Shown here in pieces: positions 846 to 20,208 of a stretch of DNA of 30,805 nucleotides. The notes below the pieces were generated by a model. That model made no database searches, was not told the origin of the DNA, and saw nothing but the letters and a program-made list of their open reading frames with translations. The stretch is from the IMG/VR virus record IMGVR_UViG_3300037418_000929; one strand, 5' to 3'. This DNA is from an uncultured virus (IMG/VR IMGVR_UViG_3300037418_000929). Taxonomy: Duplodnaviria; Heunggongvirae; Uroviricota; Caudoviricetes. Each line of letters begins with the position of its first letter. Position 1 is the first letter of the stretch. The translations under genes and the position numbers were made by a program.

Positions 846-1510
846 GTTTAACTCTTCCGCGCTTTCAGGAAATGGCTGAACTAGTAGATCAGTACGGTCG
901 CCCGACTATGGCTTTCCACATCTGGTGGGACAACTTCGCTTCTGCTATTGAAAGCAGTTTCAACAATCTCGCTGACATCGTTACTGACATTCAGACTTTG
1001 CAGACTCAGCAAACTGCAATCCTAAGTGACTTGGCCGATCAGCTGGCTCAAATCGAAGCGGCTCAGGCAGCTGCCGACGCAGCTCAAACTACGGCAGATA
1101 CAGCTCAGAGTACCGCGAATACGGTTAACCGCAACGACTCCATCTCGACCTCGTGGACCTCGCCGGGAACGATTCTTTCGGCCTCTGACACGGGTTCGGC
1201 CGCTAGGATTACAGTCTCCGGTCACACACGGAAGTACACCGACGTTTCGTCCAAGTCCGTCACAGGCGGTAACATCAACGGCCTGAACTACTCGACAACC
1301 TATTACGTTTACTACGACGACACGAACCGTTCAGGTGGTTCTCAGGTTTATCACGCCACGACCAACCCGAACACGGCTCTTCCGGGGGCTGCTGCGGGAC
1401 GACACTACTGTGGTGTGATCACCACTCCGGCTGCCGGTGGCGGCTCGACCAGCGGTGGTGTTGACGCCCCGTCTGGCGGTGGAGGCGTTCAGGGAGGACA
1501 AATCCCATAA
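842..1510 (+). CDS. Tail needle/spike-like structural protein
   Basis: ATGA overlap with gp10-like gene; N-terminal coiled coil (Q/A/T rich) then Gly/Ser/Thr beta-rich domain; occupies the P22 gp26 position. Confidence 0.6.
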   Translation: MSLTLPRFQEMAELVDQYGRPTMAFHIWWDNFASAIESSFNNLADIVTDIQTLQTQQTAILSDLADQLAQIEAAQAAADAAQTTADTAQSTANTVNRNDSISTSWTSPGTILSASDTGSAARITVSGHTRKYTDVSSKSVTGGNINGLNYSTTYYVYYDDTNRSGGSQVYHATTNPNTALPGAAAGRHYCGVITTPAAGGGSTSGGVDAPSGGGGVQGGQIP

Positions 1511-1953
1511 AGGTTGAAACCAGAAAAGACTGGGACTTGTTGATTGAAGCCACCGAATGCAACAGGGACTTCGTTCCAGTCAGTGATTTAGAGATTTGGT
1601 GGAATCTCCCGCACAACATAATGTTCATCTCGGGAGACAACGTAGGACTGGCTACGCACGAGTATCCCGGAATGTACAGCGTACACTGGTACTACCAGTC
1701 AGCGAGGAGCCGAAAGGCTATCGACCTCGGTAAGGAAATGTGCCGCCTGCTGTTCGAGGAACACGGGGCACAGTGTTTGAGAGGGTTGATTAAAGATCAC
1801 CTCAAAGCCTCTCGGTGGGCGTGTAGACAACTTGGTTTCAAATCACAAGGGTTAGTAGAGTTTCCCAACAACGACGTGAACGAGCTTTTCATAGCTACAA
1901 AGAAAGAATTCTTAGAAGGACTGAAGAAGAACAAAAATGGGTACTGTAGGTAA
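1507..1953 (+). CDS. GNAT-fold virion assembly protein (P22 gp14-like position); start ATA 1507 or TTG 1537
   Basis: C-terminal ASRWACRQLGFKSQG resembles the GNAT end motif; lies between needle and ejection genes. Confidence 0.65.
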   Translation: MKVETRKDWDLLIEATECNRDFVPVSDLEIWWNLPHNIMFISGDNVGLATHEYPGMYSVHWYYQSARSRKAIDLGKEMCRLLFEEHGAQCLRGLIKDHLKASRWACRQLGFKSQGLVEFPNNDVNELFIATKKEFLEGLKKNKNGYCR

Positions 1954-3223
1954 TTTCCTTTTCGGAGGAAGTCAGCAAAAGCAGAAGAGTACGAACACCA
2001 GTTCGTCTACGTCTTCCAATCAGTCGTCTAACAGCAACGTTCAGGCGTCACAGAGTTCTAGTAATCAAAACTCAGCTAGTGGCAGTGCCAATCGGTCTTA
2101 CGATGCGCTGGCTTCGGCTTTAACTCCGTCACTGGGGTACGTCTCCAGTGCGGGCAACATGCTCGGGGCTCTTCTCGGCTTGCCTCAGTCCACCTTCAAC
2201 TACACCCCTCCTGCACCGTCTGTTCTTCCGGCTAATGCGGGCGGCTCAAGTGGTGGTGGCGGAGCCAACCGAAATATAATCAACACTCTTCTCAAGAGGT
2301 ACATGGCGGGCACACCAGCCGCTCCTGCTCCGGCCCCTAATCCCTATCCGGTTCCTCTTCCCTCCGGAGGCAGTTACGTACCTGTTTCTTACGGCCCTAA
2401 CGACACAGGTGAACTCGGGAGCAAGGGAGAGCGACTGCCTGTTCCAATCAACACCGGAGAGCACGTTCAGTACAGGGCTGCCGGTGGTCCCGTTCAGGCA
2501 GGACAGCCTTACGTCGTAGGTGAAAAGCGGCCTGAGTTGTTCGTTCCTCACACTGACGGCACGATAATTCCTTCAGTACCGCAGACTATGGCTGCTCCGG
2601 CAACTCCACAAGTTACGACTACAGCCCCGCTTAGTTTACGTGATTTGACTAAACACCAGCCTCGCGGAGTTCGAGGCGGGCCGATTACTGTGCCTCCGGT
2701 GACGACTCCCCCTGTCACGACTCCCCCTGTCACGACTCCTCCGGCACCCACGACACCGCCGCCTCAGCCGGTATACAACCCTGCGGCCCCTAATCCCACA
2801 GACGCACTCAACACGTTCGCCAACTCGGCGGGAATGAACTTCATTCTTGACCAAGGACAGAAGGCTCTTTCGGGGGCGTCTGCGGCTAACGGCGTGTTTA
2901 ACTCCGGAGCAACCGGCAAAGCGTTAACCCAGTACGGGCAGCAACTCGGCAGTCAATATCTCGGGAACTACATGGACAAACTTCTTGACTACGCCAAACT
3001 CGGTCTTGGTTCGGCCGGTGCCCTTAGTGGTGCTGGTGGAATTAGCCAGAGCACAGGTAGCGGAGGCTCGAACAGCACCTCGTTCGGTTACGGCTCAGGT
3101 CTGTCAACTGGTACGTCCAGCAGCAACAGCACAGGGACTTCTTCTGGTTCTGGTAACTCTAAGAACGGATTGGTTCCGGCACTGACTAGGGCTGCGGCTA
3201 CCGCCGTTGCGGCAGGAGCTTAA
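1937..3223 (+). CDS. DNA ejection/pilot protein (P22 gp7-like)
   Basis: Ser/Gly-rich ends; motif ASAANG..NSGATGKALTQYGQQLGSQYLGNYMDKL; synteny. Confidence 0.7.
   Translation: MGTVGNFLFGGSQQKQKSTNTSSSTSSNQSSNSNVQASQSSSNQNSASGSANRSYDALASALTPSLGYVSSAGNMLGALLGLPQSTFNYTPPAPSVLPANAGGSSGGGGANRNIINTLLKRYMAGTPAAPAPAPNPYPVPLPSGGSYVPVSYGPNDTGELGSKGERLPVPINTGEHVQYRAAGGPVQAGQPYVVGEKRPELFVPHTDGTIIPSVPQTMAAPATPQVTTTAPLSLRDLTKHQPRGVRGGPITVPPVTTPPVTTPPVTTPPAPTTPPPQPVYNPAAPNPTDALNTFANSAGMNFILDQGQKALSGASAANGVFNSGATGKALTQYGQQLGSQYLGNYMDKLLDYAKLGLGSAGALSGAGGISQSTGSGGSNSTSFGYGSGLSTGTSSSNSTGTSSGSGNSKNGLVPALTRAAATAVAAGA
2693..2746 (+). repeat. 15-bp coding tandem repeat (PPVTT x3 plus partial)
   Basis: cctccggtgacgact / ccccctgtcacgact / ccccctgtcacgact / cctccggca. 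Confidence 0.9.
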
Positions 3224-3227
3224 CTAA

Positions 3228-4385
3228 ATGGGTAATCCTAACAAAGACGCCCTGCTTCAAATCGCGATGGGTGACGACACCACCCCGATGGTTCAGCTAA
3301 TGAGCGATCCGTTGGCTGGAATGATAGCCAACAACGGAGCTGTCGCTAGTCAAATTGGTTTGAGTCAGGCTACTCCTGACGCATCTCAAGCTGGTGCTCC
3401 CGTACCTCAGCCAGACCAAGGTGGTGGTTTAATGCCGACCATGCTAGGCCAGTCTGCTCCTCAGCCCGCTGACAATCAGTACACGGACTTCGATCCTTCG
3501 GACGTGGCTAAGTCTGTTCCTCAAATCGGCAGCGAAGACGACGACTCTCTTTCGATTTCTCCTGCGTTCAAACCGCACCAGCTAAGCACTCTCGGACACA
3601 TCGCAGACATTTTCCTGTCTGGTTTGCTGAGTAAGCACAACAACGACCGCAACATGCGCGAGGCGGTACAGGGGTTCACCAAAGACCCTGAACAGGTAAT
3701 CAGACGTATCGCTACGTTCAACCCTAAGTTGGCTCTTGATCTTCAAGAAAGGTACGTAGACAACCAGCGTCAGCAAATGAACGTTGACAAAAGCCTCAGA
3801 GCGCAGAACCTAATTGTAGACAAGTACGTTAGGGACCGTGCTGCCAGCATGGCTAACACACTCAGTAACTACAAAGACCCCACTAAGGCTCAGCAAATTT
3901 GGCCAACGCTTCGAAAGAGAATCATCGCTTTTGGGAACAACAGCGGTGTTGACTTGAGTTCTGAACTACCTGAAAACTACAGCGACTTCGACGTTAACTC
4001 GTTTGTTGCTGGTGGGATGTCCGTGCCTCAGGCTGAGCGCATCAAGCAGGGCGAACGCAAACTTGATCAGGGCGACAGACGCCTCGATCAAGGCGAAATG
4101 AGGCTTGAGCAGACTGGTGCCGATACGGAAAGCAGGATTGACGCCCGTGTTGCCAGAACTAGTCAGGGGCAGCAGCGTCTCGATCAGAGTGCAGCCAATC
4201 AGGCACAGTCAATTAAGAACAAGAACGACACCATCGCTAGGAAGTACGGTCTGCCGGTCGATCCCGCAGAGGGCTTTGCAAAGATCAGCCCTGACGGAAA
4301 ACGCGGACTGAAGTTCCACAACGGTCGTTGGATGCGTTTCGAGCGTGGTTCAGACGGAAACCTTCATCCGATAGGATACCTGTAA
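3228..4385 (+). CDS. DNA ejection / internal virion protein
   Basis: AGGAG SD; Gln-rich helical protein with QG.R.LD heptads; lies between two other ejection genes. Confidence 0.6.
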   Translation: MGNPNKDALLQIAMGDDTTPMVQLMSDPLAGMIANNGAVASQIGLSQATPDASQAGAPVPQPDQGGGLMPTMLGQSAPQPADNQYTDFDPSDVAKSVPQIGSEDDDSLSISPAFKPHQLSTLGHIADIFLSGLLSKHNNDRNMREAVQGFTKDPEQVIRRIATFNPKLALDLQERYVDNQRQQMNVDKSLRAQNLIVDKYVRDRAASMANTLSNYKDPTKAQQIWPTLRKRIIAFGNNSGVDLSSELPENYSDFDVNSFVAGGMSVPQAERIKQGERKLDQGDRRLDQGEMRLEQTGADTESRIDARVARTSQGQQRLDQSAANQAQSIKNKNDTIARKYGLPVDPAEGFAKISPDGKRGLKFHNGRWMRFERGSDGNLHPIGYL

Positions 4386-4388
4386 AAC

Positions 4389-7300
4389 TTGGCTAGTCTT
4401 TGGGACGACCCCGACATTTGGGGTGACAACAAAAGTGGAAAGAAGACTGCTCTAGGGCGGCTGGCAGACTCCGTAACTAACACCCTCGCCAACATTGGTG
4501 AAGGGGCGGTTCACGCCGTACCGGATACCCTTGGGTTCCTAGGCGACATTCTTCAGAGCGGTGCATACCTAAGGCGGGGCAATCTCTCTGCCATGAGTAT
4601 CCCGGGAACTGGTCCGATTTCTCAGGCAGTCCAGAAGTCGTTCAGCGAGGCTGAAGACAAGTACACCAAAGGCCAAACCCCTAAGCCTAAGAACAAAGTT
4701 GACGAGTACGCCAACAACATCAGTCGCGGTATCGCTGACGCCATGATGGGGGGTGGGCCGGAAACTGCTGTGCCCGCTTTGCTTTCCGGTGCCGCCGGTG
4801 GTGCAGCCGCCCTGGGTACGTACGACCTAACTGGAAACAACACCCTAGCTACTTTGGCCGGTTTGACAGCCGGTATTGCGGCTCCGGGTGCCCACGCGTA
4901 CTTCAGCAGCCCCGCTCGGATGATCGCTCGCGGTGCGTCCTACCCTAACTTCTCGTTTCTCGTGCGTACGGTAGAAGACCTCGAAAGAGGTGGAACCCTC
5001 GACAACCCGAAGGTCAATCCGAAATCCGGGGCGATGGGAGTGATGCAGGTTACTCCGGAGACGGCTCGTCAGCCGGGATACGGTATTCGTCCGTGGAACG
5101 GAAAGGATCAGACTGACCTAGCCCGAGTAGGTCGTCAGAAGCTGGCCGCTCTAAACGGTAAGTACGGCGGTGACACCGACAAGGTTCTCGCTGCGTACAA
5201 CTGGGGTGAAGGAAATCTCGACAGGGCTATTAAGAAGTACGGAGACGACTGGTACTCCCACGCCCCCCACGAGACGCAGAACTACGTAGCCAACGGTGCT
5301 CGTCAGCCAGGCGAAGGTGGAAGTGTTGGTGGTCCGGTCCGTTCTATGGAGTCAGAGGACATTGCCTCGGCGTTGGGGAACAAGCAGGCGGAAGACCTAC
5401 AAGACCTTGCGTCTGTTACGCAAATTCCGGACGACAACATTATTCAAGGGCGCTTTGGACATCCTTTTGAAACTCTTCAGGACCAAATTGATGCTGTGGG
5501 TAGGTCAGGAGAAACACACCCTCGAACTAAATGGGATGGTGCTTTAGATCAATTAGAAGCTAATTATAAAGCGGGACGAATTTCTGAAGAAGAGTTTGAT
5601 GCTCAGTTGAATCGAATCGGCCGTCAATTTTCTGACGAATCTCAGTCCCAAAATGTTCTAACCCCTGCTGAACGGCAGGACATGGATGCCTCAGTTCCCA
5701 CTCAGCCGGTAGATAACACCGGTTACGAGAAGTACACTCCGTACGTTGAAGAGCCTCCCGCTCCGGCTAATGATGTCGAAGGCAAGTCTCCAATGGATTT
5801 GGAGCTGGAGAATAGGGTTAATACGCCCGAAAACATTGCTGGAGCTAAGGACGTTTGGGATAAGGCGCATGAAGATTACATGTCGCAGTTCCAACAGCCA
5901 GACGATTACAATTCGGCTTTGATTCGCCAAAGGGGCGGAACTGGTCGCAAGTTCACAATGTCACCTGATGATTTTCAGGCAGCTCTGGATCATGCTGACG
6001 AAGCAGTTCACAAATACTGGCAAGACAAGGTAGACACAGCCAAAGCCGATTTAGATAAGGAGGGCTTCGGAAGTGGCGGACAAGAGCCTCCGAATGAACC
6101 ACCTTCGGGCGGTGATGGAACAGGTCCGACTGACGGTGGTGAAGAGCCCCCTGTCTCTCGCTCTGACGAAGAGCTGACTGACAAGCTCGCCCTCACTGTA
6201 AAGAACGCCAAGCCTCTTCGTGAGCAGCAGGAAAGCCTGTACCACAAAGAACGCTCCAAGCGACTGAAGGCCATGCAAGACGCCGCGAAGATGACTTCCG
6301 GCGAGGACAGAGTTCGTGCCCGCCTCTCGGCTCTCGGTGGCGATCTTCCTAAAGTTGACTACGAAGGTGTTCGAGGACAGTTCTCCCAAGAAGAGATCAA
6401 CCGCCTGAACGACATCATTGAGGAACACCCCCGTCTCGGAGACTTCGACAAAGTACACGCCGAAGCCGGGTTGAAGAAACTCCTCGAAGGTTCAGTACCG
6501 ACCCACGGTGAACTCCGTCTGTTGGCCGAGGCTTTCCCCGACAAAGTAATCAAGGCGATTCTAGATAAGCGAGAGTTCGGAGAGAAGTTCAACGACTTCA
6601 TCCTGAACGCCTCTTCAGCCAGCCGTGCCCTTCGAGCTTCGGGAGACCTTTCTGCACCACTTCGTCAGGGTATCAACCTAATCGGTACTAAGGCGTTCTG
6701 GAAGAGTTTCTTCACGATGTTCAAGTCGATGGGGAAAGAAGGCTTCGAAGCCGTACAGAACGAAATCGCCAGTCGCCCTACGTTTCCGCTGATGCAGCGT
6801 TCGGGATTGGCCATTACCAAGGTCAGTCGAATTCTCGACGACCGAGAGGAAATGTTCCTTTCTACTTGGGCGGAAAAGCTTCCTCACGTCAAGTACTCAG
6901 AACGGGCGTACATCGCCTTCCTCAACAAGCTCCGTGCCGACACTTTCGACAGCCTAGTTAAGCAGTCGTACGCAGCCGGTATCGACTTCAGAGAGAGTCC
7001 GAAAGCTTTGAAGGACATTGCCACGTACGTTAACAACGCCACCGGAAGAGGCTCTCTCGGCCAACTGGCTGGCTCTTACAAACTCTTGAACGCCACGTTG
7101 TTCGCTCCACGCCTCATGGCTTCGAGGGCGAAGATGCTTACGTGGTTCTTTAACCCGAGCTTCTACACGACGTTGAATCCTGTAGTCCGTCGGGCTTACA
7201 TCAGTAACATGATTAAGATGGGGGGAATAGTCGGAACTGCTGTGGGGCTCGCCAAGATGGGCGGCCTAGGAGTCGACGTGGACCCGAGGAGCAGTGACTT

Positions 7301-7814
7301 CGGTAAGGTTAAAGTGGGGAATACTCGGTTCGACCCGTGGGGCGGCTACCAGCAGTACGTTCGACTGGCTTCCGTACTGGTAGCCGGTGAGAAAGTCAGT
7401 CCAACCACCGGAGCCGTGACTTCACTTACAGACGGCAAGTTCGGACACGGTACTCGCTTCGATGCTGTCGTTGACTTCTTGCGCAACAAGGAGTCGCCTA
7501 TGGCCAGTATCGTAGACGATCTCCTCAGTCTTCCGAAGGACAGGTTCGGACAGAAGATCACCCCCACGAAAGAAGCAATTAATCTGTTCGTCCCGATGGT
7601 TGAAGAGGACATTCGACAGGCTTGGCAGGACAATCACGCAGCCGGAATAGCTGCCGGTCCTGCTGCGATGTTCGGTGTTGGAGTACAGACTTATCAGCCT
7701 AAGGAGCCGAAGACTGGGACGAAAGACCCGTTCAGCGATCCTGCTTTGTGGGGGGGTGCCTCTCCGACCACTAAAGACCCGTTTAGCGATCCTAGTATTT
7801 GGAGTGGGCAGTGA
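4389..7814 (+). CDS. Large internal virion/ejection protein with SLT-type lytic transglycosylase domain
   Basis: LERGG...SGAMGVMQVTPETA...LAAYNWGEG...ETQNYV motifs; 1141 aa. Confidence 0.85.
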   Translation: MASLWDDPDIWGDNKSGKKTALGRLADSVTNTLANIGEGAVHAVPDTLGFLGDILQSGAYLRRGNLSAMSIPGTGPISQAVQKSFSEAEDKYTKGQTPKPKNKVDEYANNISRGIADAMMGGGPETAVPALLSGAAGGAAALGTYDLTGNNTLATLAGLTAGIAAPGAHAYFSSPARMIARGASYPNFSFLVRTVEDLERGGTLDNPKVNPKSGAMGVMQVTPETARQPGYGIRPWNGKDQTDLARVGRQKLAALNGKYGGDTDKVLAAYNWGEGNLDRAIKKYGDDWYSHAPHETQNYVANGARQPGEGGSVGGPVRSMESEDIASALGNKQAEDLQDLASVTQIPDDNIIQGRFGHPFETLQDQIDAVGRSGETHPRTKWDGALDQLEANYKAGRISEEEFDAQLNRIGRQFSDESQSQNVLTPAERQDMDASVPTQPVDNTGYEKYTPYVEEPPAPANDVEGKSPMDLELENRVNTPENIAGAKDVWDKAHEDYMSQFQQPDDYNSALIRQRGGTGRKFTMSPDDFQAALDHADEAVHKYWQDKVDTAKADLDKEGFGSGGQEPPNEPPSGGDGTGPTDGGEEPPVSRSDEELTDKLALTVKNAKPLREQQESLYHKERSKRLKAMQDAAKMTSGEDRVRARLSALGGDLPKVDYEGVRGQFSQEEINRLNDIIEEHPRLGDFDKVHAEAGLKKLLEGSVPTHGELRLLAEAFPDKVIKAILDKREFGEKFNDFILNASSASRALRASGDLSAPLRQGINLIGTKAFWKSFFTMFKSMGKEGFEAVQNEIASRPTFPLMQRSGLAITKVSRILDDREEMFLSTWAEKLPHVKYSERAYIAFLNKLRADTFDSLVKQSYAAGIDFRESPKALKDIATYVNNATGRGSLGQLAGSYKLLNATLFAPRLMASRAKMLTWFFNPSFYTTLNPVVRRAYISNMIKMGGIVGTAVGLAKMGGLGVDVDPRSSDFGKVKVGNTRFDPWGGYQQYVRLASVLVAGEKVSPTTGAVTSLTDGKFGHGTRFDAVVDFLRNKESPMASIVDDLLSLPKDRFGQKITPTKEAINLFVPMVEEDIRQAWQDNHAAGIAAGPAAMFGVGVQTYQPKEPKTGTKDPFSDPALWGGASPTTKDPFSDPSIWSGQ

Positions 7815-8005
7815 AGTTAACAGAGTTGGAGCGTATTACAGCCGTGGAAGTCAGACTGACCACCCTCGAAGAGAAGATGGACAAGATGGACAAGAAGCTG
7901 GACGACCTTCTGGCTCTTCGCAACAAAGGTGCGGGTGTCCTGTGGTTCTTCGGCCCCGTCGGCCTAGTAATACTAGAACTAATACACTACTTTTGGAGTA
8001 AGTAA
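7811..8005 (+). CDS. Small coiled-coil protein with C-terminal TM helix (holin-like/lysis accessory)
   Basis: GTGA overlap with upstream stop, GGAG SD; ERITAVEVRLTTLEEK coiled coil followed by hydrophobic segment. Confidence 0.6.
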   Translation: MKLTELERITAVEVRLTTLEEKMDKMDKKLDDLLALRNKGAGVLWFFGPVGLVILELIHYFWSK

Positions 8006-8008
8006 ATC

Positions 8009-8473: not shown

Positions 8474-8493
8474 CTGAGAGTAACTCCGTCAAG

Positions 8494-9658: not shown

Positions 9659-9820
9659 TTAATCTTGCGGAGCATCGCTAGGTTCGAACTGACTTTCGAA
9701 GTCCTCGAAGCTTAGGAAGAAAATGTTCTGATCGTTGGGGTAACACTGTCTGACAATTACCCCGTCGTTCATCAGCTTGGCGTCGTAAAGTAGCCAAGTT
9801 TCCTTATCCCTAAACCTCAC
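9659..9820 (-). CDS. Small hypothetical protein (about 53 aa)
   Basis: 3' part of the listed 157-aa ORF; GTG start overlaps the nrdJ end. Confidence 0.5.
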   Translation of the reverse strand: MRFRDKETWLLYDAKLMNDGVIVRQCYPNDQNIFFLSFEDFESQFEPSDAPQD

Positions 9821-11687
9821 AAAATCCGGCGACGCAGGCGAGTTCTTGTGTTCCTGTGGTATTATCTTCTCTTTCGTATTCTGAGAGCCTCGTCCAGTCA
9901 ATTTGGGCGGGGCTTTTTCGTACCCACTCTTCGTACTGTTCTTCTGTGAGAGTTTGGTACGGAGCCTGCGGATACTCGGTTGGGTCAAATGGTAGAAAGC
10001 TAACGCCAGACAACAGATCGAAATGTCTGTGACACCAAGCTGCAACGTCCAACCACTCGTCCTCTGCAACAGAGATTGTAACCGACGGCTTGTGTTCGCA
10101 CCAGTCTTGCTGAAACTTTTTCCAAACTTCAAGGAACTCTACCGCTTCCAAATCTTTCCGAACCACGGACCCACTAGGAGATTTCTGCGGGAAGTAGAAG
10201 ACCATTGTAGAAGAGTTTCGTTGATCTTCTTCACACGGAACGCCGCATTCGACAAGAAATTGTGTGATTGGGTCTTTCTTGTCATTGCGAACTGAACGAA
10301 GATAATATGGAGACCAACGAGGATGAATTCCAGAGGCACTGTTAACAAGCTGACTGACAGTTCCGCTAGGCTTAACGCAAGTAACAGCAGCGCTTCGAGA
10401 TATTCCAAGACGGTCCGCCCACTCTGCGTTAGTTTCGTTCGCAACTCTTTTAAGTCCATTTAGATCAATCTTTCCGTTAAAAAGATCACGATTGTCAGCA
10501 ATACCAGTAAGCGAAACACCTAGGAGTCGCTCTTCTTCGGTGTTCTTTTGCCAGATTTTCCGAAGGTATCTGAAGTTCGTGAACGTGGACTGAATTGTGC
10601 CGAGAATTGTAGCGAGGCGGACTTTCCGTTCAAGGTCGCTACTTTTATCTTCAGGTCGGACAACAACTTCCGTGAGGTTGCAGAACTGGAAAGGTCGAAG
10701 GATGATCTCTGAGCATGGGTTTGTGCCAAAGTCATAGTTCGGATCGCGTTTTCCAAGCTTTTCAACGATCCTTCGAGAAGCGTCTCGATTGAAGATACCT
10801 CGCTCTCCCGACTTGCTGTCGTAGAGGGCTTTCCACTCTTTGAGGAATTCTCCGACTTCTGGTTTGCCATTGTACACCGCCGAGTTGTTAGCTAGCTGGC
10901 GATGAACGTGGCCTTCCCACCAAGCGCCAGACTTGGCGGTGGCCATTGCCTCGGAACCGAGGTCACTTAGACTGATCATTGCCGACCGCCTGACACCGCC
11001 TACTACAACGACGTCGGCGATCATGCACATCAAGTCGTGTGCTTCAATGGGAGACAGACGACGACCCGCTCCTCCCTTAAAGAGTCGCACACTGAAGTCA
11101 AAAAGTCGAACAAGAGGCTCGGGTCCCGAAGCTCTTCCTCCAAACGTCTTGAGTCGTGCACCAGCAGGTCGTACTCGCGACACGTCCCACTTGGGGATTC
11201 GACCAGCAATGAGTAGGGTGAGTAGCTCACGGAAGGACTTGCACCAGCCCTCTTTACTATCCTCAACGACAATAGTTGTGTCGGTTTCTTCGAACTGCTC
11301 AGTAATGCGCGGGAGTTGTTGGACATACTTTTCTTCTACGCTAAAGCCTACGCCGGTGCCACACATGAGAATGTACATGGCTTCGTCGAAACTGCGGATA
11401 CTATCTACGGGAAGGTACGCACAGTTGTATGCACCGACGTTACATCGGTCGAGTGCGGGACCGGCAGTCATCATGCACCTCATGGAGGGCATGACTTCCA
11501 TGTTCAGAATGGCTGTTCTCAATTCAGCATGAATTCCTTCATATCCAAACTGATCTTTAAGTCCCACCTGCTTAACGTAATATTGAATTAGGCGCTCTAC
11601 CGTCTCTTCCCAAGTCTCTCTGCGTCCGTCTTCCTCTCGCCACCGTGCGTACCTACTTCGGTGAATGAACGTTTGATAGTCGTCTAT
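9810..11687 (-). CDS. nrdJ: Class II (adenosylcobalamin-dependent) ribonucleotide reductase; inferred ATA start at 11687
   Basis: YNCAY, GTGVGFS, GGVRRSA, TNPCSEI, VKPSGT and C-terminal ELACVAGFCEV. Conserved N-terminus DDYQTFIHRSRYARW...RRETWEETV lies upstream of the called GTG. Confidence 0.93.
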   Translation of the reverse strand: MDDYQTFIHRSRYARWREEDGRRETWEETVERLIQYYVKQVGLKDQFGYEGIHAELRTAILNMEVMPSMRCMMTAGPALDRCNVGAYNCAYLPVDSIRSFDEAMYILMCGTGVGFSVEEKYVQQLPRITEQFEETDTTIVVEDSKEGWCKSFRELLTLLIAGRIPKWDVSRVRPAGARLKTFGGRASGPEPLVRLFDFSVRLFKGGAGRRLSPIEAHDLMCMIADVVVVGGVRRSAMISLSDLGSEAMATAKSGAWWEGHVHRQLANNSAVYNGKPEVGEFLKEWKALYDSKSGERGIFNRDASRRIVEKLGKRDPNYDFGTNPCSEIILRPFQFCNLTEVVVRPEDKSSDLERKVRLATILGTIQSTFTNFRYLRKIWQKNTEEERLLGVSLTGIADNRDLFNGKIDLNGLKRVANETNAEWADRLGISRSAAVTCVKPSGTVSQLVNSASGIHPRWSPYYLRSVRNDKKDPITQFLVECGVPCEEDQRNSSTMVFYFPQKSPSGSVVRKDLEAVEFLEVWKKFQQDWCEHKPSVTISVAEDEWLDVAAWCHRHFDLLSGVSFLPFDPTEYPQAPYQTLTEEQYEEWVRKSPAQIDWTRLSEYEREDNTTGTQELACVAGFCEV

Positions 11688-11848
11688 TCGTCTTCTCCAT
11701 ACAGATAAATCTCTTTTAGCATATCATAATCCAGAACTCCCCGATCATTAAGAAATGCTATAACGTCGTCGGCGGTTTCTTCTGTGAGGTAAACCGTTTC
11801 TAAAAGTTCTTTTCTGAACTCGTCATAAACATCAACATCCCCCATCAT
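11684..11848 (-). CDS. Small acidic hypothetical protein (54 aa, not in ORF track)
   Basis: MMGDVDVYDEFRKELLETVYLTEETADDVIAFLNDRGVLDYDMLKEIYLYGEDE; overlaps both neighbours by 4 nt. Confidence 0.7.
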   Translation of the reverse strand: MMGDVDVYDEFRKELLETVYLTEETADDVIAFLNDRGVLDYDMLKEIYLYGEDE

Positions 11849-13000: not shown

Positions 13001-13708
13001 TTAACTAATCTTAGTCCTTTTACCTGTAGTCCATCCGAAACACTTCTGACACTGAAGCCGTTCAGTCTTGTAGTGTGCCGTCAGTCTAAATCCTCTCCGG
13101 TGTACACGAGCAGAAGTACACTTAGGACAACTACGACCGCTTCCAATGTTAGGATGATTGGTGATGTAGGGTCTAACACGTTTGTAAACTCCCTCGGTCA
13201 AACGACAGTCGTGGACGCAGTACTTCTTCATCTTCGCCTGTGCCTGCTCGTCTCCTGCCATGACCTTCTTCCACAGGCCGAACCCCTCGTGCTCCATCTT
13301 GTGTCCGATGTTCAGCATCGACGCGATGTGTTCTAGCTTGTTGGAGAAGAACCTAGTCTTGTGACGAAAGAATTTATATAAATCTACATGGCTAGGTGGA
13401 GGAGGAGGGCTGACGCCAGCAAGGATAAACTCAGTGACAAAATGCGGATAGTCAAACTTTTCTCCGTTGTAGGTTATGAGTACGTCAGCTTCTTCTAGAA
13501 GATCACGAGCCGCCTCTAGCATCCCTAGATAGCCGTGTTCCCACTCGGAGAAAAACATGATCTCTTTCTTACCGAGCCACTTGGCGGAGAAACAAAGCAG
13601 CCCCCCCGGCTCTTCAATTTGGACCGGTGCGATGTTCTCGCGCCAGCCTTTCCACACCCATGCTTTTGTAGGTCGGGTCTCTATATCGAAAGTGAGGATT
13701 TTACTCAT
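13001..13708 (-). CDS. RNase H-like (DnaQ/YprB-type) 3'-5' exonuclease with C-terminal Zn ribbon
   Basis: FDIET, YNGEKFD, YCVHD; CPKC...CQKC. Confidence 0.88.
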   Translation of the reverse strand: MSKILTFDIETRPTKAWVWKGWRENIAPVQIEEPGGLLCFSAKWLGKKEIMFFSEWEHGYLGMLEAARDLLEEADVLITYNGEKFDYPHFVTEFILAGVSPPPPPSHVDLYKFFRHKTRFFSNKLEHIASMLNIGHKMEHEGFGLWKKVMAGDEQAQAKMKKYCVHDCRLTEGVYKRVRPYITNHPNIGSGRSCPKCTSARVHRRGFRLTAHYKTERLQCQKCFGWTTGKRTKIS

Positions 13709-14109
13709 GGTTTCTTCCTTTTCTTGGGCTTCTTTTTAGGAACAAACCACCCCGTACCCTGCTCAAGGTACTCTGCCATTTTTCGCAGAAGAGTGCTATC
13801 CCGATGCCTACCTAGTAACCTGTGATTACAATAGGCGCAAAGAAGACCACGTATCTCACCAGTATAGTGGTCGTGATCTACGTGCATGTTTCGTTTTTGT
13901 TCCGAAGTGTGCTTATCACATATGGCACACTGATGATTTTGTTTATCCAACAACTCATCATATTGTTCTAGTGTTATGCCATAGGCATTCTTAAGATGTC
14001 TTCGCCGGTCCGCGAGCTTATCTCGTTCACGGTATCCCGTGTCCTTTCTCATTTTAGCCCGCCAGTTTCTCTGGTATTCGTTTTTGGTCTCGCGTTTCGT
14101 ATAACCCAA
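13705..14109 (-). CDS. Endonuclease VII-family (His-Me finger) nuclease
   Basis: YGITLEQY..Q...CAIC...HVDHDH.TG.IRGLLC..CN..LG. Confidence 0.92.
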   Translation of the reverse strand: MGYTKRETKNEYQRNWRAKMRKDTGYRERDKLADRRRHLKNAYGITLEQYDELLDKQNHQCAICDKHTSEQKRNMHVDHDHYTGEIRGLLCAYCNHRLLGRHRDSTLLRKMAEYLEQGTGWFVPKKKPKKRKKP

Positions 14110-14970
14110 CTACCAATCCTCTTTGGGAACCTTGGGTTCACGAACTACCTTTGTTAGAAACTTCGGTCCTGACGAATATGTGTAAACTTGAAGTCCCTGA
14201 CCACCGTTGGTGTCTCGATAGCAGTGGAATTTGTAGGAGCAGTATGAACAGCCAACATCGAGGACGCGGTTTCCTGAAACACCATCTGGCTTATCTGGAT
14301 AGCATCGAGGAGGTTCAACTTCACTTTCGAGGACGGAACGAAGATGCTTAATCCTTGGTGCGGGCTTGTTGGCGGCCAACACCGCAGGGCTAACTTCACA
14401 AAAAGCCACGTCGCCGTGAACCTTATCCGCCACCAGAAATCCGGCCCTGTCAGTACCGAGGGCGGCACGATAGCCAGAGATTTGCCCGATGTAGCCGAAG
14501 GGGTCATTCTCCACGAATGCACCCGATACGAACTTGTTGAAAGAATATGAACTAGCGGACTTAACGTCCACCGTAACACCGTCGATAACCGCGTCACAGT
14601 GTCCTTTAACGCCGTCCACTTCGACTTCAGCTTGTTCGTGAGTGACTTCATGTCCGGCTTCCTTAGCAAGAAAGAGCAGCAGCAACTCAATCAAGTCTCC
14701 GTAAAGGAACTTGAAGTGGGTTTTAGGAAGCAATCGTTCAGCTTTGTCCGCCGCGTGTTCTGCGTACCAAAGTTGTCTGGCAGGCCTACCGAGACTCGAA
14801 AACCTCAACGTTGCTGCTGCTCGCTCCCGACTGGAAAGCCGTCGACGCAGTAGCTCTTTGACGCTACCAGCAATCCAGTCGAGATTCTCTTCCGACGGCT
14901 CGTGGTTGGTGTCTTCGTCCAGCAGGGCGTAAATGTCAGACACCAGCGAGTCGACGGTTTTACTAGGCAT
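14110..14970 (-). CDS. PD-(D/E)XK (RecB/Cas4-like) exonuclease
   Basis: LRFSSLG, KGHCDAVIDG..VDVKSAS, Y..Q..GY, CSYCSYKFHC. Confidence 0.88.
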   Translation of the reverse strand: MPSKTVDSLVSDIYALLDEDTNHEPSEENLDWIAGSVKELLRRRLSSRERAAATLRFSSLGRPARQLWYAEHAADKAERLLPKTHFKFLYGDLIELLLLFLAKEAGHEVTHEQAEVEVDGVKGHCDAVIDGVTVDVKSASSYSFNKFVSGAFVENDPFGYIGQISGYRAALGTDRAGFLVADKVHGDVAFCEVSPAVLAANKPAPRIKHLRSVLESEVEPPRCYPDKPDGVSGNRVLDVGCSYCSYKFHCYRDTNGGQGLQVYTYSSGPKFLTKVVREPKVPKEDW

Positions 14971-15166
14971 TCGCTAGAGAGATACCCTTGCGGTCTGCCC
15001 CACGAATTGCGTCAGTCTTACGCGTGTACGTAGCGACTACACCGTCCGTAGTGTGAACGATTGCGTACTTGCCACTCGGGGTCTTCTCCAGAGTGAACGT
15101 CGGGGTTGTAGCCACGCTCGCGGGCGCTCGCAGAGTACGCTTTTCCTTGTTAAACCATCCAAACAT
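14963..15166 (-). CDS. Small hypothetical protein (67 aa, MFGWFNKEK...)
   Basis: AAAGGA SD before ATG 15166; the longer listed ORF runs through the ribozyme and is probably over-extended. Confidence 0.65.
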   Translation of the reverse strand: MFGWFNKEKRTLRAPASVATTPTFTLEKTPSGKYAIVHTTDGVVATYTRKTDAIRGADRKGISLANA

Positions 15167-15214
15167 ATTCTTACTTCCTTTCTTAAATAATTGTGCGGCT
15201 TGGCTCTCCGACCG

Positions 15215-15281
15215 ACCCACCTTGGGAGAGGCTATGCGACCCGAAGGTTTCTGCTTTCGCTTCATCAGGCAAATGGTGGGC
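15215..15281 (-). ncRNA. Type I hammerhead ribozyme variant (copy 1)
   Basis: UGC-CUGAUGA-A GC GAAA GC A-GAA-ACC UUCG GGU-C-GCA inside outer stem GCCCACC/GGUGGGU; intergenic. Confidence 0.72.
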
Positions 15282-15328
15282 TGCGTCCCCAACTCTACCG
15301 CACTGGGGGACCTGTGCTCTGTTAGTTC

Positions 15329-15883
15329 TTACTCAGGAACGTCGTCGTCCAACTCGTCGAGTGCATCCTGCACTGTCTTAAGCTGTTGCTTCGGCATTTC
15401 ATCCGTAGTGTACGTATCGCTGCCAAAGAACTCGTCATCCGTGCTGAGCGGAGCGAAGTCCTGTGAAACGTACGGAACTAGGTCGAGGACTCGAATCGCT
15501 CGGATGTAAACACCCTTCTTCTTGCCTACGCCGTAGTCCTTGACGACGAACTTTACGTCCACCTGCGAACCGTTGCCGATCAGGCGTCCGTCCCAAGCGT
15601 CGTTGTTGGCGTCCACGATGCGAAGAGGCTCGGCCTTTTCTCCGTTCGCCTTCATCTCTCGGTGCCGAAACGAAATGAACGTGTCCTCTCTGCTGTCACC
15701 TTCCTTAGGCTGCCGGAGGCGGTCTTGAATACCGAGCTTCTTGAGAAGGGTCCGACCTTCGGCGTCTGGCGTCAAGTCAATGGACCACTCTCGTTCGCCG
15801 GTGAAACTGTTCATCCTCGGGGCACCGATTACCTTAGCCCAGTGAGCAATTCCACGAACGATAATGTTTTCTGTACTAGCTAT
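15329..15883 (-). CDS. ssb: T7 gp2.5-like single-stranded DNA-binding protein; inferred ATA start at 15883
   Basis: RGIAHWAKV N-terminal motif, IGNGS.V.V, AIRVLDLVPY, acidic tail LDDDVPE. Confidence 0.85.
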   Translation of the reverse strand: MASTENIIVRGIAHWAKVIGAPRMNSFTGEREWSIDLTPDAEGRTLLKKLGIQDRLRQPKEGDSREDTFISFRHREMKANGEKAEPLRIVDANNDAWDGRLIGNGSQVDVKFVVKDYGVGKKKGVYIRAIRVLDLVPYVSQDFAPLSTDDEFFGSDTYTTDEMPKQQLKTVQDALDELDDDVPE

Positions 15884-15915
15884 TTTCTAAACCTTTCTTC
15901 TTTACTTACTCTCTA

Positions 15916-15944
15916 ATTATACCACGCTTTACTACAAATGTCAA
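15916..15944 (-). promoter_or_regulatory. Consensus sigma70 promoter upstream of ssb
   Basis: TTGACA-17 nt-TATAAT with GTGG before -10. Confidence 0.92.
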
Positions 15945-15956
15945 GAACTATTTACA

Positions 15957-17780
15957 CTAGTGGGTTTGACTCCACGTTAGTCCTGACTTGACGCTAGCTT
16001 CAATTGGCACGTTATAGTTAAATGATCGTCCTGCCCTTTCGAATGCTCCAAGAGCCAGTTCCGAAAATCGGTCAACATCTCCGGTAGCAACGACATATTG
16101 GAACTCGTCGTGAATTGAACCGACGAGCTTTGCGTCAAGTTTGTTTCGTCTGATTTCTTCATCTAAGTAAATACTCGCTTGTTTCATAATCCGTGATTCG
16201 TCCCCTTGGAGCAAGTACGGGATTACCATGTGGTCTGAAGATACTAGGACTTTACTTCCATCGCAGAGAGTAATTCGTCCAGTTCGTTTAAGCTCACCTT
16301 GGAGTCGAGCAATGAGTCGAGACAGTCCTGGAACCTGTTCAAAGAACTTTCGTTTAGCGTCTTTAGCTTCACGCAAAGGCACATCTGCTTCTGAAGCAAT
16401 TCGGGCATCTCCCGCCCCCATAAGTGTAGCGTAGACAATTGTTTTAGTAAGCGCTCTCGAAGCCAGTCCAAGTCGCTCTTGATTAGCTGTGTGTGGGTCA
16501 TTGGAAAGGATAGCCTTTGTAAATTCTTCGTCTTCTAGGTAGTGGGCAAGCACCCGCAACTGGATGCCTTTTGCGTCAACACCAACCAGCCGATAACGGT
16601 CCACATCGCCACAGGTCCAAAGATCGCGAGCTTCGTAAGTCCACGAACCGTCTTCTCCCAAATCAGGTCGTTCATTAGTGATCCGCACAGCAGGAATGTT
16701 AGCGGTGTTAGGATTGTCATGCCGGTAGCGAAGAGTGCTAGCCAACCACACGTTCCCATGTATTGCTCCTGTCTTTTCGTTGTAGGCGTTTAGCCAAGTG
16801 TTCACCATGTTGGCTCGGGAGTTAGTTACGACCCATTTAGCAAGTCGTCTACTTCCTTCATTGTTAGACGATTCGGCGAACTTGATGAGACTTTCTTCGT
16901 CGACTTTTGGGTTGCCCGCTTTAGTGTACGAAGTCGCCTTCCAGCCCGCCTCAGTGAGTTTGTCAACCCTTTGGCTTGGGCTTCCAAGATTGAACTCAAC
17001 CCAATCAAACGCGTCGTATCCTCCGTCGTCACGGAGTCGGAGTTCCGGATATTGCTCTCTATGTCTCTCATAGTTTGCAGTGCGACTTCCATCTTTCTTA
17101 AAGGCTTTTGCAAACGATCCAACACACCGAAACTCAGGTGGCCACTGTTTGTAGATTTCACGCTTTAGGTCCTCTTCACGGGTTCGAAGGAGTACGTAGA
17201 GTTCTTCCGCCCGTCGTTTGTCAAACGGAAAACCGTGCCTTCGCTGTTTATTCTGTATGATGTGCCACGAACGAGTCTCCAAAGCGGCCCCCCGTTCGGT
17301 GAAGCCAACATCTCGCATCCGTCGTGTGAGACGATTGAAAAGCCGTTTCGTAAGCGCTGTGTCGTTTTCACAGTACTGTCTCATTTCCTCCGAGTAGTGT
17401 GTGAAGTCCTTGAACGGAAGTTTAGGAAACCTTAACCGCCCACCCCAAACTTCCAAACTATGACCGCCAGTAAAGCTAGGGCTGTACAGCATAGAAAGGA
17501 CAAAGGTATCAACAAGTTTGGAGACACCAATTTTGCAACCCCAAATTTTGTTGAGGACCGGGGCGTCAAAGGCGACGATGTTATGCCCAACCAAATAGGC
17601 ATCTCGCGGTAGCCACTTGTTGAAATCTTCCGCACTGGTGAACGTCCTTTTCTCGTCTGTTACTGCGTTCTCAACACATACGACGAATATCTTCGTACAC
17701 TCGTCACGAAGCCCGTCCGTCTCTATGTCCAAAACCCAGTGGTTTTTTGTCGGAGTTAGATATTTTCCTTCTACGTTCAA
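15957..17780 (-). CDS. Family A (T7-like) DNA polymerase with 3'-5' exonuclease domain
   Basis: DIETDGL, GHNIVAFD, YCEND; motif A DAKGIQLR, motif B RALTKTIVY, motif C IHDE. Confidence 0.95.
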   Translation of the reverse strand: MNVEGKYLTPTKNHWVLDIETDGLRDECTKIFVVCVENAVTDEKRTFTSAEDFNKWLPRDAYLVGHNIVAFDAPVLNKIWGCKIGVSKLVDTFVLSMLYSPSFTGGHSLEVWGGRLRFPKLPFKDFTHYSEEMRQYCENDTALTKRLFNRLTRRMRDVGFTERGAALETRSWHIIQNKQRRHGFPFDKRRAEELYVLLRTREEDLKREIYKQWPPEFRCVGSFAKAFKKDGSRTANYERHREQYPELRLRDDGGYDAFDWVEFNLGSPSQRVDKLTEAGWKATSYTKAGNPKVDEESLIKFAESSNNEGSRRLAKWVVTNSRANMVNTWLNAYNEKTGAIHGNVWLASTLRYRHDNPNTANIPAVRITNERPDLGEDGSWTYEARDLWTCGDVDRYRLVGVDAKGIQLRVLAHYLEDEEFTKAILSNDPHTANQERLGLASRALTKTIVYATLMGAGDARIASEADVPLREAKDAKRKFFEQVPGLSRLIARLQGELKRTGRITLCDGSKVLVSSDHMVIPYLLQGDESRIMKQASIYLDEEIRRNKLDAKLVGSIHDEFQYVVATGDVDRFSELALGAFERAGRSFNYNVPIEASVKSGLTWSQTH

Positions 17781-17842
17781 ACTCTTTCATAATCCCTTTA
17801 ATTTCACGCCAGTGATCTGTGAACAACTGTTCCAGCGTTTCG

Positions 17843-19537
17843 TCAGAAAGCTCTTTGATCATCTCTGACTGACTCTCCGGCTTCGTACTGCTCGGCCTCT
17901 TCTTGACTGAGTTCCTCCAGTCTGCCCGTGATCCCATTATAGAAGAGGTAGCAGGCTGGTCCAGTCCTACCGCAGAAGCGGTTCTTTTCCACCACGACTT
18001 TAGTGACATTTCGTCTCCATTCGTTTAGGTCGGTGTTGTTCCTGTACAGCTTGATTACGATGTTAGCGAGCTGCTCGACACCGGCTGTGCCTCGGATTTG
18101 CCCTTGGCGGTTCTGGTGAATTACACAGATCAGCGCTAGATTGAGTTCCATACAAAGCGTCTTGGCTTTGGTGGCAATCTCGTCTAGCTGTTTCCTCTCG
18201 TCACCAGACTGATCACTAACCACAATGCTGAGGTGGTCCAGAACAATGTACTTACAGCCCAAAGCGTGCATGTGACGGATTTTGTCAAGGACTGCATCCA
18301 CTGTGTTGGAGCCAAAGTGATCCCAAATAACCACACGACTGCTGTTGATAACGTTGTCGTAAGCAGTTCGGAGTTCTTCGACAGTACGCTCAGTGTCAGG
18401 AAGATGATAAGGCTTATCAGCGTAAATAGACATAAGCCCGAGAGCAGTGTCGTAGTTGGGTTCTTCAAGGTGGATGAAACCCACCCCGTAACCCTTGTCC
18501 TTAAGCTCTTGATTGCTGAGAAGAGCATACTCTACTTCCTTGAGGACGCTTGTTTTTCCGATGCCAGTTTCCGCAGTGACGACAACCATCTCGGAGAGAC
18601 GAAGGCCGTAAGTGAGTCTGTTAAGACCCGCAAACGGATAGTCGACTTGGAAATGCTTAGGTCGGTTGATGATTTCGTCCCACATGTCGGAGCCGAGTTT
18701 GATCCCGTCCGGCATGTACACTGGTGCGTCCCACCACTCTTTGTGGAACTCTTTGACTTTGCCGTTTTTGAGGTAGTCATTGGGGTCTTTCTCCTCTTGG
18801 AACTTGACGATGCGGACTTTACCCGGCTTGAAGCCTAGCTCGGCTATTTGCTTGGCCGTCTTCTGCCCTACTTCGTCTCCGTCTAGCGCGAGAACAACAC
18901 GCTCAAAGCTGTCAAGATACTCAAAGTTGTTACGTACGTCACGTACAGCAGTCCCGCCAGAAGCAACGCTGACAACAGGATACCGACTCCCACAAAGTAC
19001 CCAAGCCGCCGCCGCATCGTACTCGCCTTCGACGACAGTGATTTGCTTAGCGCAGCCTTGAGGGAAAAGATGCTGTCCAAACAGTTCAACTTCATTGGCT
19101 TCACCTTCCCAAAAGAACTTCTTGTCTTTCGTACGTACTTTGTTACCGACGTGCTTGCCGTCTTTGAAGTACGGATACCTAGCTTCGACACGTTCGTCGT
19201 TCTGTACTAGGTCGATGCCGTACTTCTGGATAGCTGCCTTCGGGAGTGCCCTGTGTTCGGCAGCCCGGAATACGTCAGTTACCGGCGTGACAGGGTTAGA
19301 ATAAGCCCGGTTAGGCCGACCCCCACCGTCAGTCCCCAGATGAACTCCAAAATCATGTTCGCTGTTTGATAGCACATTGTTTTTATCCTTGTTAGGTGGT
19401 TGTCTGTATCCGCAGAGATTGTTGAAGCACTTGCCCCACCCGGTCTTCGGGTCAATGCTGAAGGCATCTGACGAACTACAGTTAGGACAAGGCAGGTGAC
19501 TTACTGATGATTGTCGCGTAGAAATTGAGCTATCCAC
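17843..19537 (-). CDS. T7 gp4-like primase-helicase
   Basis: CPNC..SDA Zn finger, TOPRIM VEGEYDA/DGD, Walker A ETGIGKT, LDHLS, VEKNRFCG.TG. Confidence 0.96.
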   Translation of the reverse strand: MDSSISTRQSSVSHLPCPNCSSSDAFSIDPKTGWGKCFNNLCGYRQPPNKDKNNVLSNSEHDFGVHLGTDGGGRPNRAYSNPVTPVTDVFRAAEHRALPKAAIQKYGIDLVQNDERVEARYPYFKDGKHVGNKVRTKDKKFFWEGEANEVELFGQHLFPQGCAKQITVVEGEYDAAAAWVLCGSRYPVVSVASGGTAVRDVRNNFEYLDSFERVVLALDGDEVGQKTAKQIAELGFKPGKVRIVKFQEEKDPNDYLKNGKVKEFHKEWWDAPVYMPDGIKLGSDMWDEIINRPKHFQVDYPFAGLNRLTYGLRLSEMVVVTAETGIGKTSVLKEVEYALLSNQELKDKGYGVGFIHLEEPNYDTALGLMSIYADKPYHLPDTERTVEELRTAYDNVINSSRVVIWDHFGSNTVDAVLDKIRHMHALGCKYIVLDHLSIVVSDQSGDERKQLDEIATKAKTLCMELNLALICVIHQNRQGQIRGTAGVEQLANIVIKLYRNNTDLNEWRRNVTKVVVEKNRFCGRTGPACYLFYNGITGRLEELSQEEAEQYEAGESVRDDQRAF

Positions 19538-19665
19538 TTACACCTTTCTGAATTGTACACGTTCGCCCAGTACGCCCGGTCTTCTCCTCCTGTAGGGCGG
19601 TTGGAGAAATACTTAGCAGCTTCGTCTAAAAACTTAATTGCCCCGTCAACAGACATAGGCAGCAT
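19501..19665 (-). CDS. Small hypothetical protein (54 aa, not in ORF track)
   Basis: MLPMSVDGAIKFLDEAAKYFSNRPTGGEDRAYWANVYNSERCKWIAQFLRDNHQ; AAAGGA SD, TGATG coupling. Confidence 0.7.
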   Translation of the reverse strand: MLPMSVDGAIKFLDEAAKYFSNRPTGGEDRAYWANVYNSERCKWIAQFLRDNHQ

Positions 19666-19844
19666 CAAATTGATCCTTTCCCGTTGTACTGGGTGAGTTC
19701 AAGTCCTAGCTTTCTTTCAAGATCGTGGATTTCATTGAGGATGTACTGTTTGGTTGACTTACTGTGAAAGCCTTCAAACAGACGTCTCTTGGCGTATTCT
19801 AGCTCGGCCTCTAGTCGGGCCAGCTCTGAGGGGTTCTTAGGCAT
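19665..19844 (-). CDS. Small hypothetical protein (59 aa, not in ORF track)
   Basis: MPKNPSELARLEAELEYAKRR...; AAAGGA SD; first ORF after the promoter. Confidence 0.7.
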   Translation of the reverse strand: MPKNPSELARLEAELEYAKRRLFEGFHSKSTKQYILNEIHDLERKLGLELTQYNGKGSI

Positions 19845-19925
19845 TGAGTTCCTTTGTTGGAGGACTCGGCAAGCCTCGCCCTCTATATAGGAGTATAGTA
19901 GATTACCGCTCGCAACTTGTAATTA

Positions 19926-19954
19926 ATTATACCACAGTCGAACGGGTTTGTCAA
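19926..19954 (-). promoter_or_regulatory. Consensus sigma70 promoter upstream of the replication operon
   Basis: TTGACA-17 nt-TATAAT with TGTGG before -10. Confidence 0.92.
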
Positions 19955-20148
19955 GTAAAATCGTCACCGTCTGGTGAAAAAGGGAAATCCTGTGTTTCAA
20001 AGTCATCGTCTGTGAAGACGGCGTTATCCTTGTAGCTGTTGATAACGTCCTGAATGACTTCCGTGCATTCTTCGCACGGTTCCCACGCTTTTAGTTCTCT
20101 GTTATATCGGGGTTGCGACAACAGGCGGTCGCAAATGTGACACCTAAT
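19951..20148 (-). CDS. Small Zn-finger protein with acidic tail; inferred ATT start at 20148 (alternative TTG 20208)
   Basis: RCHICD...PCEEC; GAGGA SD 7 nt before ATT. Confidence 0.65.
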   Translation of the reverse strand: MRCHICDRLLSQPRYNRELKAWEPCEECTEVIQDVINSYKDNAVFTDDDFETQDFPFSPDGDDFT

Positions 20149-20208
20149 GGTGAATTCCTCTCTTCCGAACAATGGCGGGCCTTCGTACGCATCCCGCCCG
20201 AAAAACAA

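Follow-up and report, generated by a model that had tools for sequence, protein, structure and literature searches.

Start codons of four phage genes

Which codon opens translation when ATA or ATT stands at the position where related genes begin? This question is raised by the IMG/VR record IMGVR_UViG_3300037418_000929, a stretch of 30,805 nucleotides (nt) that was analyzed as a whole and is called the window throughout. It represents 30.8 kb out of the approximately 48.9-kb genome of an uncultured podophage from soil. Four genes were concerned, namely nrdJ for a B12-dependent class II ribonucleotide reductase (RNR), ssb for a predicted T7 gp2.5-like single-stranded DNA-binding protein (SSB), and the genes of a predicted GNAT-fold protein and of a small zinc-ribbon-like protein. 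Their weak starts are ATA 1507 (+ strand), ATA 11687 (-), ATA 15883 (-) and ATT 20148 (-), each with a Shine-Dalgarno (SD)-like motif 7-9 nt upstream.

1493..1497, + strand: SD GGAGG, 9 nt before the ATA of the GNAT-fold gene (SD/anti-SD duplex -11.1 kcal/mol)
1507..1953, + strand: gene of the predicted GNAT-fold protein, 148 amino acids (aa), start ATA 1507-1509
9810..11687, - strand: nrdJ, B12-dependent RNR, 625 aa, start ATA 11687-11685
11695..11698, - strand: SD GGAG, 7 nt before the nrdJ ATA (duplex -6.4 kcal/mol)
15329..15883, - strand: ssb, predicted T7 gp2.5-like SSB, 184 aa, start ATA 15883-15881
15892..15896, - strand: SD-like AAAGG, 8 nt before the ssb ATA (-4.2 kcal/mol versus a background mean of -3.8)
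19951..20148, - strand: CxxC...CxxC zinc-ribbon-like protein, 65 aa, ATT 20148-20146, giving (M)RCHICD
20156..20160, - strand: SD GAGGA, 7 nt before the ATT (-8.8 kcal/mol)

In our interpretation the four genes are intact and very probably translated from these SD-positioned near-cognate codons (AUA three times, AUU once), which would attenuate or condition their expression. As shown here by sequence comparison, the codons are real and occupy the alignment column at which the genes of relatives begin, and the conserved N-termini of the nrdJ, ssb and GNAT-fold products leave no room for a canonical one. For these three genes no in-frame ATG, GTG or TTG was found upstream of the conserved N-terminal sequence, and for all four the aligned column in relatives holds a canonical or a weak start codon. 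Within the window's genome, the comparison with relatives flagged only these four genes as lacking a usable canonical start. An SD motif 5-10 nt upstream was present at 4/4 sites, while an SD-like 4-mer at this distance precedes 154 of the 1,875 ATH trinucleotides of the window (8.2%); as the sites had been picked for their SD, this background gives no valid p-value, and the comparative evidence is the real test.

The initial annotation, made from the sequence alone, had named the four sites with their SD motifs and spacings together with alternative TTG codons at 1537/1540 and 20208/20172; all of these were found in the sequence. It had taken the starts as real rather than as isolated errors, which is backed by the orthologs and by independent run assemblies. 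A tabulation of ortholog start codons, suggested there, was carried out and gave columns of mixed canonical and weak starts, not uniform ATG.

Concerning sequence fidelity, at least 0.89 of the sampled words were present in ten soil/rhizosphere sequencing runs; no RNA run was listed among them. Logan contigs from these covered position 1507 (X1, X3, X6), 11687 (X1, X6, X10), 15883 (X1) and 20148 (X3) with 0 differing letters over each covered site; the word depth was about 7 for X10 and 33-97 in the others. The same letters in contigs from four soil/rhizosphere runs therefore argue against a sequencing error. Inside nrdJ, at 10656-10850, alternative short contigs with 5-16 differences were seen in X1, X3, X6 and X10; either strain variation is concentrated there, or sequences of related phages cross-map to this place.

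N-termini and start columns of nrdJ, ssb, the GNAT-fold gene and the zinc-ribbon gene

The nrdJ product contains the RNR Pfam domains PF02867, PF21995 and PF17975 (RNR barrel and B12-dependent insertion domain) and is 61% identical over its full length to the nrdJ annotated in Lentibacter phage ICBM2 and in Roseobacter phage CRP-2. When 1,220 phage records were compared by tblastn, the alignments began at query residue 2-3, with at least 80% query coverage in 1,186 of the 1,220. Residues 2-41 (DDYQTFIHRSRYARW...) are conserved, yet they lie upstream of the first canonical start, GTG 11567, which is found 40 codons into conserved sequence; no canonical start is present between the in-frame stop and this GTG. 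In 12 related loci the aligned column holds ATA three times, ATG seven times and TTG twice. ATA is found in L010, L011 and L015, the latter with TGA three codons upstream and no canonical option; ATG in L006, L007, L013, L014 and L017, and in L001 and L002 a few codons upstream of the column; TTG in L021, and in L019 again upstream of it. A GGAG-type SD was common to the ATA and ATG versions inspected. Directly upstream of nrdJ lies a short open reading frame (ORF):

11684..11848, - strand: 54-aa ORF, its ATG overlapping the stop codon of the 143-aa gene (ATGA) and its TAG overlapping the nrdJ ATA (ATAG)

These overlaps may form a coupling chain into nrdJ; the 54-aa ORF is not conserved among relatives.

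For the 184-aa ssb product neither Pfam nor PHROGs gave a match, and a PDB sequence search with the SSB profile gave 0 hits. An AlphaFold (AF2) model built from 12 orthologs reached a mean predicted local distance difference test (pLDDT) of 76.6, and its top Foldseek matches were T7 gp2.5 (1je5, E 1.8e-6, template modelling score TM ~0.5) and the phage Enc34 SSB. The C-terminal tail is acidic, ending ...LDELDDDVPE; together with the OB fold of the model, this classes the protein as a T7 gp2.5-like SSB. An in-frame TAG stands two codons upstream of the ATA. Starting at ATG 15814 would drop residues 1-23, including the modelled OB-fold beta-strand 7-17. In the aligned column of 18 loci ATT was found 14 times, TTG and ATG twice each. 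A wider set of 52 loci yielded ATT 17, TTG 17 and ATG 15; two loci were cut at the 5' end (L060, L089) and one was unclear (L096). About 30 nt upstream of the ssb start lies a promoter, and an equivalent architecture is present upstream of ssb in relatives:

15916..15944, - strand: sigma-70 consensus promoter TTGACA-17-TGnTATAAT, 12/12 matches

Sigma-70 consensus promoters matching at 12/12 positions and carrying an extended -10 TG were found at 15916-15944 (-), 19926-19954 (-) and 27634-27661 (+). The total of promoter-like sites in the window was not above that of shuffled sequences (9 versus 11.7); three exact ones were present nonetheless.

No family was found for the 148-aa GNAT-fold protein in Pfam and PHROGs, and hhalign of its alignment against the GNAT protein of phage ICBM2 gave a probability of 0.12. 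The AF2 model (pLDDT 92.9) had 346 PDB matches at E<=0.001, and among the listed matches with a family label in the title all were GNAT acyl/acetyltransferases; by its model the protein has a GNAT fold and would be acetyltransferase-like. Of 29 homologs found, 23 were aligned, and 23/23 have M-I/V-x-x-R as their first residues, at or beside the ATA column of the window, so that KVETRKDWD is conserved. The TTG codons 1537/1540 as starts would delete 10-11 conserved aa, including strand 1 and part of helix 1. The only related GNAT contigs, L022 and L023 (both from genome G007), have the ATA out of frame; an in-frame ATC, with GGAGG 5 nt upstream, stands there at the Met column of homolog P0019. 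No GNAT homolog was found in G002-G006. The gene is directly preceded by another ORF:

842..1510, + strand: upstream ORF of 222 aa without family match, its TAA (1508-1510) overlapping the ATA (ATAA)

This ATAA overlap would allow translational coupling of the 222-aa ORF to the GNAT-fold gene.

The zinc-ribbon-like protein likewise had no match in Pfam and PHROGs. The column before RC.IC[DN] was compared in 13 related loci and holds ATG in nine, ATC in two (L005, L006), ATT in one (L012) and TTG in one (L003); in L010 and L011 a TAA directly precedes the ATG. Upstream of the gene a hairpin is found:

20174..20198, - strand: GC hairpin GGCGGG...CCCGCC, conserved upstream of the zinc-ribbon gene (G007, G008, G010)

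In G007, G008 and G010 an in-frame TAG follows the hairpin exactly where the window has TTG 20172, and TTG 20208 stands before the hairpin. Because TTG 20172 aligns with this TAG and a conserved hairpin precedes the gene, the upstream TTGs are unlikely as zinc-ribbon starts. The fold of the leader RNA was not more stable than that of shuffled sequences (z 0.71), so the hairpin is supported by its conservation only. The doubt that the initial annotation had attached to 1507 and 20148 on account of the TTG codons is settled in favor of the weak codons. The GC hairpin is the second of two that separate the 258-aa gene from the zinc-ribbon gene; the first (20211-20228, - strand) is terminator-like and has a T-run.

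Weak starts among related phages

Further replication genes of the related phages showed the same behavior. For the exonuclease, which starts with ATG in the window, 10 relatives were compared after dropping duplicates; behind a conserved SD, the start is ATC in G002/L009, G004 and L012, CTG in G003 and L004, TTG for L003 and L007, and ATG for L018 and L019. The DNA polymerase starts with CTG in G004 and with ATC in G008 and G010, and the Cas4-like gene with CTG in L004, all behind a conserved SD. For the primase of G002 and G003, ATT is the sole option before the zinc ribbon, with no clear SD. A restriction of weak starts to the DNA-polymerase clade of the window was considered and dropped, given the ATC starts of the G007 GNAT gene and of the G008 and G010 DNA polymerases.

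Start codons were then mapped onto two trees, both small and partly unresolved. The DNA-polymerase tree, obtained by a quick search, has 20 rows, of which 16 form the window's clade (SH-aLRT 93) and four the outgroup. AUA, AUC or AUU (AUH) was the ssb start in 15/15 rows of the clade with data, while 4/4 outgroup rows were canonical. At minimum one change between canonical and weak class is needed on this tree for ssb, three for nrdJ, three for the zinc-ribbon gene and two for the exonuclease. In the SSB tree (50 rows) AUH appears in two separate lineages, corresponding to a minimum of two gains; their nearest relatives start with TTG or ATG and have more distant polymerases (52-55% identity), and both AUH lineages fall inside one DNA-polymerase clade. 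Neither this phage group nor weak starts of phage SSB genes turned up in a literature search that left most subscription journals outside its range.

Proposed mechanism and known systems

An AUH codon matches the initiator tRNA at two positions, and initiation factor 3 (IF3) disfavors such codons. We propose that the ordinary initiator tRNA reads AUA or AUU at all four genes. Because of its imperfect pairing and of IF3 discrimination, translation from these codons would be lowered, and output would depend more on ribosome delivery and host physiology. Delivery could come from a good SD, from the stop/start overlap (nrdJ, GNAT-fold gene) and from abundant mRNA made by the consensus promoter (ssb). 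Within this soil podophage group the start codon of replication genes drifts among ATG, GTG, TTG, CTG, ATT, ATC and ATA, which looks like cheap tuning; the frequent flipping at most genes points to either cheap tuning or near-neutrality. The weak ssb codon was kept throughout the window's clade, which suggests that selection throttles or conditions the SSB output of a very strong promoter. A specific regulatory role is hinted at solely by ssb, whose weak start is both retained and convergent.

Expression tuning, one of two explanations put forward in the initial annotation, fits these data and the published values for AUA and AUU output and ppGpp sensitivity. According to PMC13009471, AUA and AUU gave about 10% of AUG output in Staphylococcus aureus reporters, a value which may differ in the host of this phage, and the ccpN start reached up to about 30% of AUG output in rich medium. 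For a phage hydrolase expressed in Escherichia coli, AUH starts gave 5-7.5% of AUG output (PMC5499595).

The mechanism itself is already known; new here is a dense example in core replication genes of a phage. The AUU starts of E. coli infC, encoding IF3, and of pcnB are similarly SD-led, read by the initiator tRNA and IF3-discriminated, and they limit or regulate output (PMC5499595, PMC13009471). Unlike here, where replication and virion genes are affected and several occur per genome, infC is autoregulated by its own proofreading product. SD-led non-canonical starts are also described for S. aureus and Bacillus subtilis ccpN (AUA) and S. aureus cvfC1 (AUU), citZ (AUA) and infC (AUA) (PMC13009471). 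Those starts have extended SDs, whereas the SDs of the window range from strong (GNAT-fold gene -11.1, zinc ribbon -8.8) to weak (ssb -4.2), and they are conserved ones, whereas the codon here flips among relatives, except for ssb.

A phage SSB with control at initiation is well known. T4 gene 32 is translationally autoregulated at initiation on an unstructured leader and possesses an AUG and an mRNA operator. The comparison can only serve as an analogy for the ssb case.

For annotation, gene callers limited to ATG, GTG and TTG truncate such core genes, the RNR by 40 aa and the SSB by 23 aa, and the truncated annotated forms lose structural elements. The phage group represents a natural series in which one type of SD-preceded start column occurs with all seven near-cognate codons. 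With ssb fixed as weak behind a textbook promoter, it offers material for deciding among throttle, drift and sensor of host translation.

Alternative explanations

Several points weigh against the reading proposed here. The frequent flips from ATG to AUH could mean that the codon hardly matters in the host, which weakens the attenuation part. The tabulated gene families had been chosen for showing weak starts and were inspected by eye; other genes, namely the 57-aa GTG gene, the 85-aa gene, the 143/148-aa gene and the class II GATase (except in G002), are canonical throughout. The 'M' of database homologs shows merely that a gene caller found some canonical start. Among the four genes, ssb has a weak SD motif (-4.2 kcal/mol against a background mean of -3.8), and L009-L011 have a TTG six codons upstream of their ssb ATT and L017 a downstream GTG; the zinc-ribbon ATT has the in-frame TTG 20208 and TTG 20172 upstream in the window. 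Finally, X1, X3 and X6 are possibly the assembly's own source, and X10 alone was not flagged as such.

A tolerant host, in which AUH and CUG are nearly as good as AUG given an SD and the codons are near-neutral drift rather than attenuators, is possible, if doubtful. All seven start codons of translation table 11 interchange at homologous SD-preceded columns of several genes, and between 20 and 40 C an AUA mRNA was comparable to AUG in extracts of E. coli (PMC5499595). However, most genes keep ATG, GTG or TTG, with the four genes of the window's genome as those without a usable canonical start. A regulatory switch, by which the AUH genes respond to changed start-codon proofreading through the level or activity of IF3 (the second proposal of the initial annotation), through ppGpp and nutrients or through initiation machinery altered by the phage, is considered unlikely; replication genes would in that case be activated in suitable conditions alone. 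The T7 protein kinase phosphorylates initiation factors, and the uniform AUH start of ssb in the clade as well as its gain at least twice, in separate SSB lineages, are in favor of a switch. mRNAs with non-AUG starts respond more sensitively to ppGpp and nutrient limitation, which inhibit them preferentially (PMC5499595), and excess IF3 depresses non-canonical initiation and re-initiation (PMC2268962). Against it, canonical and weak starts alternate among close relatives at nrdJ, the zinc-ribbon gene, the exonuclease and the DNA polymerase, and the class changes on the DNA-polymerase tree argue against an obligatory switch at nrdJ, the zinc-ribbon gene and the exonuclease. Moreover, no tRNA gene was found in the window's genome, and no candidate for an initiation factor among the ORFs scanned. 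Going one step further, start-codon proofreading might be relaxed or exploited across the whole host-phage system, with AUH and CUG as condition-dependent starts in the replication module, which appears quite unlikely. The convergent weak ssb start, which in both SSB lineages stands behind a consensus promoter, could in that case be a sensor gating phage DNA replication on the initiation state of the host; its input could be the level of IF3 or ppGpp, or feedback of SSB on its own short leader.

That simply the nearest canonical codon is used (nrdJ GTG 11567, ssb ATG 15814, GNAT TTG 1537/1540, zinc ribbon TTG 20208/20172) is highly improbable. Such codons do exist in frame, but conserved sequence and modelled core strands would be lost, and SD pairing is poor for nrdJ (-0.6), the GNAT-fold gene (-2.3/-3.9) and the zinc ribbon (-3.9/-3.3); the ssb ATG pairs at -6.4, but the motif abuts the start codon without any spacer. 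For the zinc ribbon, the aligned TAG of G007, G008 and G010 and the position of TTG 20208 before the conserved hairpin stand against it as well. Errors in sequencing or assembly, pseudogenes and a variant genetic code that reads ATA as Met all have a negligible probability. The IMG/VR record G001 is the same assembly as the window, circularly permuted (0 and 2 mismatches), so that the two give no independent confirmation of each other; however, the contigs of the four runs are identical at the sites, and contigs of other samples show the same weak codons again. None of the reading frames is disrupted. At 128 aligned positions from six genes, internal ATA codons correspond to Ile in 73% and to Val in 20%, with Met outside the six commonest residues; therefore no recoding has taken place, and ATA as Met was ruled out. 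Translation from the SD-positioned weak codons remains the explanation we prefer.

Genome context

The + strand of the window carries virion and lysis genes at 1-9.6 kb. From 9.8 kb on, the - strand encodes nrdJ, exonuclease, endonuclease VII, Cas4-like nuclease, SSB, DNA polymerase A and primase-helicase, followed by a cluster of ATP-grasp, amidoligase and GATase genes. In its gene order the replication module agrees with that of two cobaviruses, Lentibacter phage ICBM2 and Roseobacter phage CRP-2. A megablast of window positions 1-20000 against cultured phages gave no match, thus no close cultured relative, and neither did tblastn of the ssb, GNAT and zinc-ribbon proteins. No related loci were found for the 428-aa virion protein. 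As a lead to the host, a scan of genome contigs gave only a partial polymerase match of 26% in a gammaproteobacterial metagenome-assembled genome, which is uninformative. No tRNA genes were found in the window and G001, hence no phage initiator tRNA, and those of the relatives were tRNA-Pro (G003) and tRNA-Leu (G005) only; a scan covering part of the window's ORFs found no initiation-factor-like gene.

The ends of G001 overlap by 153 bases with 2 mismatches, though IMG/VR classifies the record as linear without end repeats. The genome is a mosaic: its replication module is common to G001 and G002-G004 (DNA polymerase identity 69-80%), and its virion module, among G002-G005 and G007, to G007 only, the polymerase of which is 57% identical.

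At 21270-26924 (- strand) the window contains a cluster of RimK-like ATP-grasp, amidoligase_2, phiEco32-like COOH-NH2 ligase, class II GATase and peptidase C26 genes; relatives of at least four of these occur in G002-G005 and G007. A link of this cluster to ribosome modification would be pure speculation. G005 and G007 carry parts of it, and all replication genes examined there start canonically. In L028 (G002, approximately 1095-2385) the class II GATase ortholog has GGC, which is no start codon, directly before the catalytic Cys, no SD, and a frame open upstream. Between endonuclease VII and a small ORF, window positions 14110-14970 (- strand) encode a 286-aa protein matching PHROG 1990 (Cas4-domain exonuclease, E 3.9e-37).

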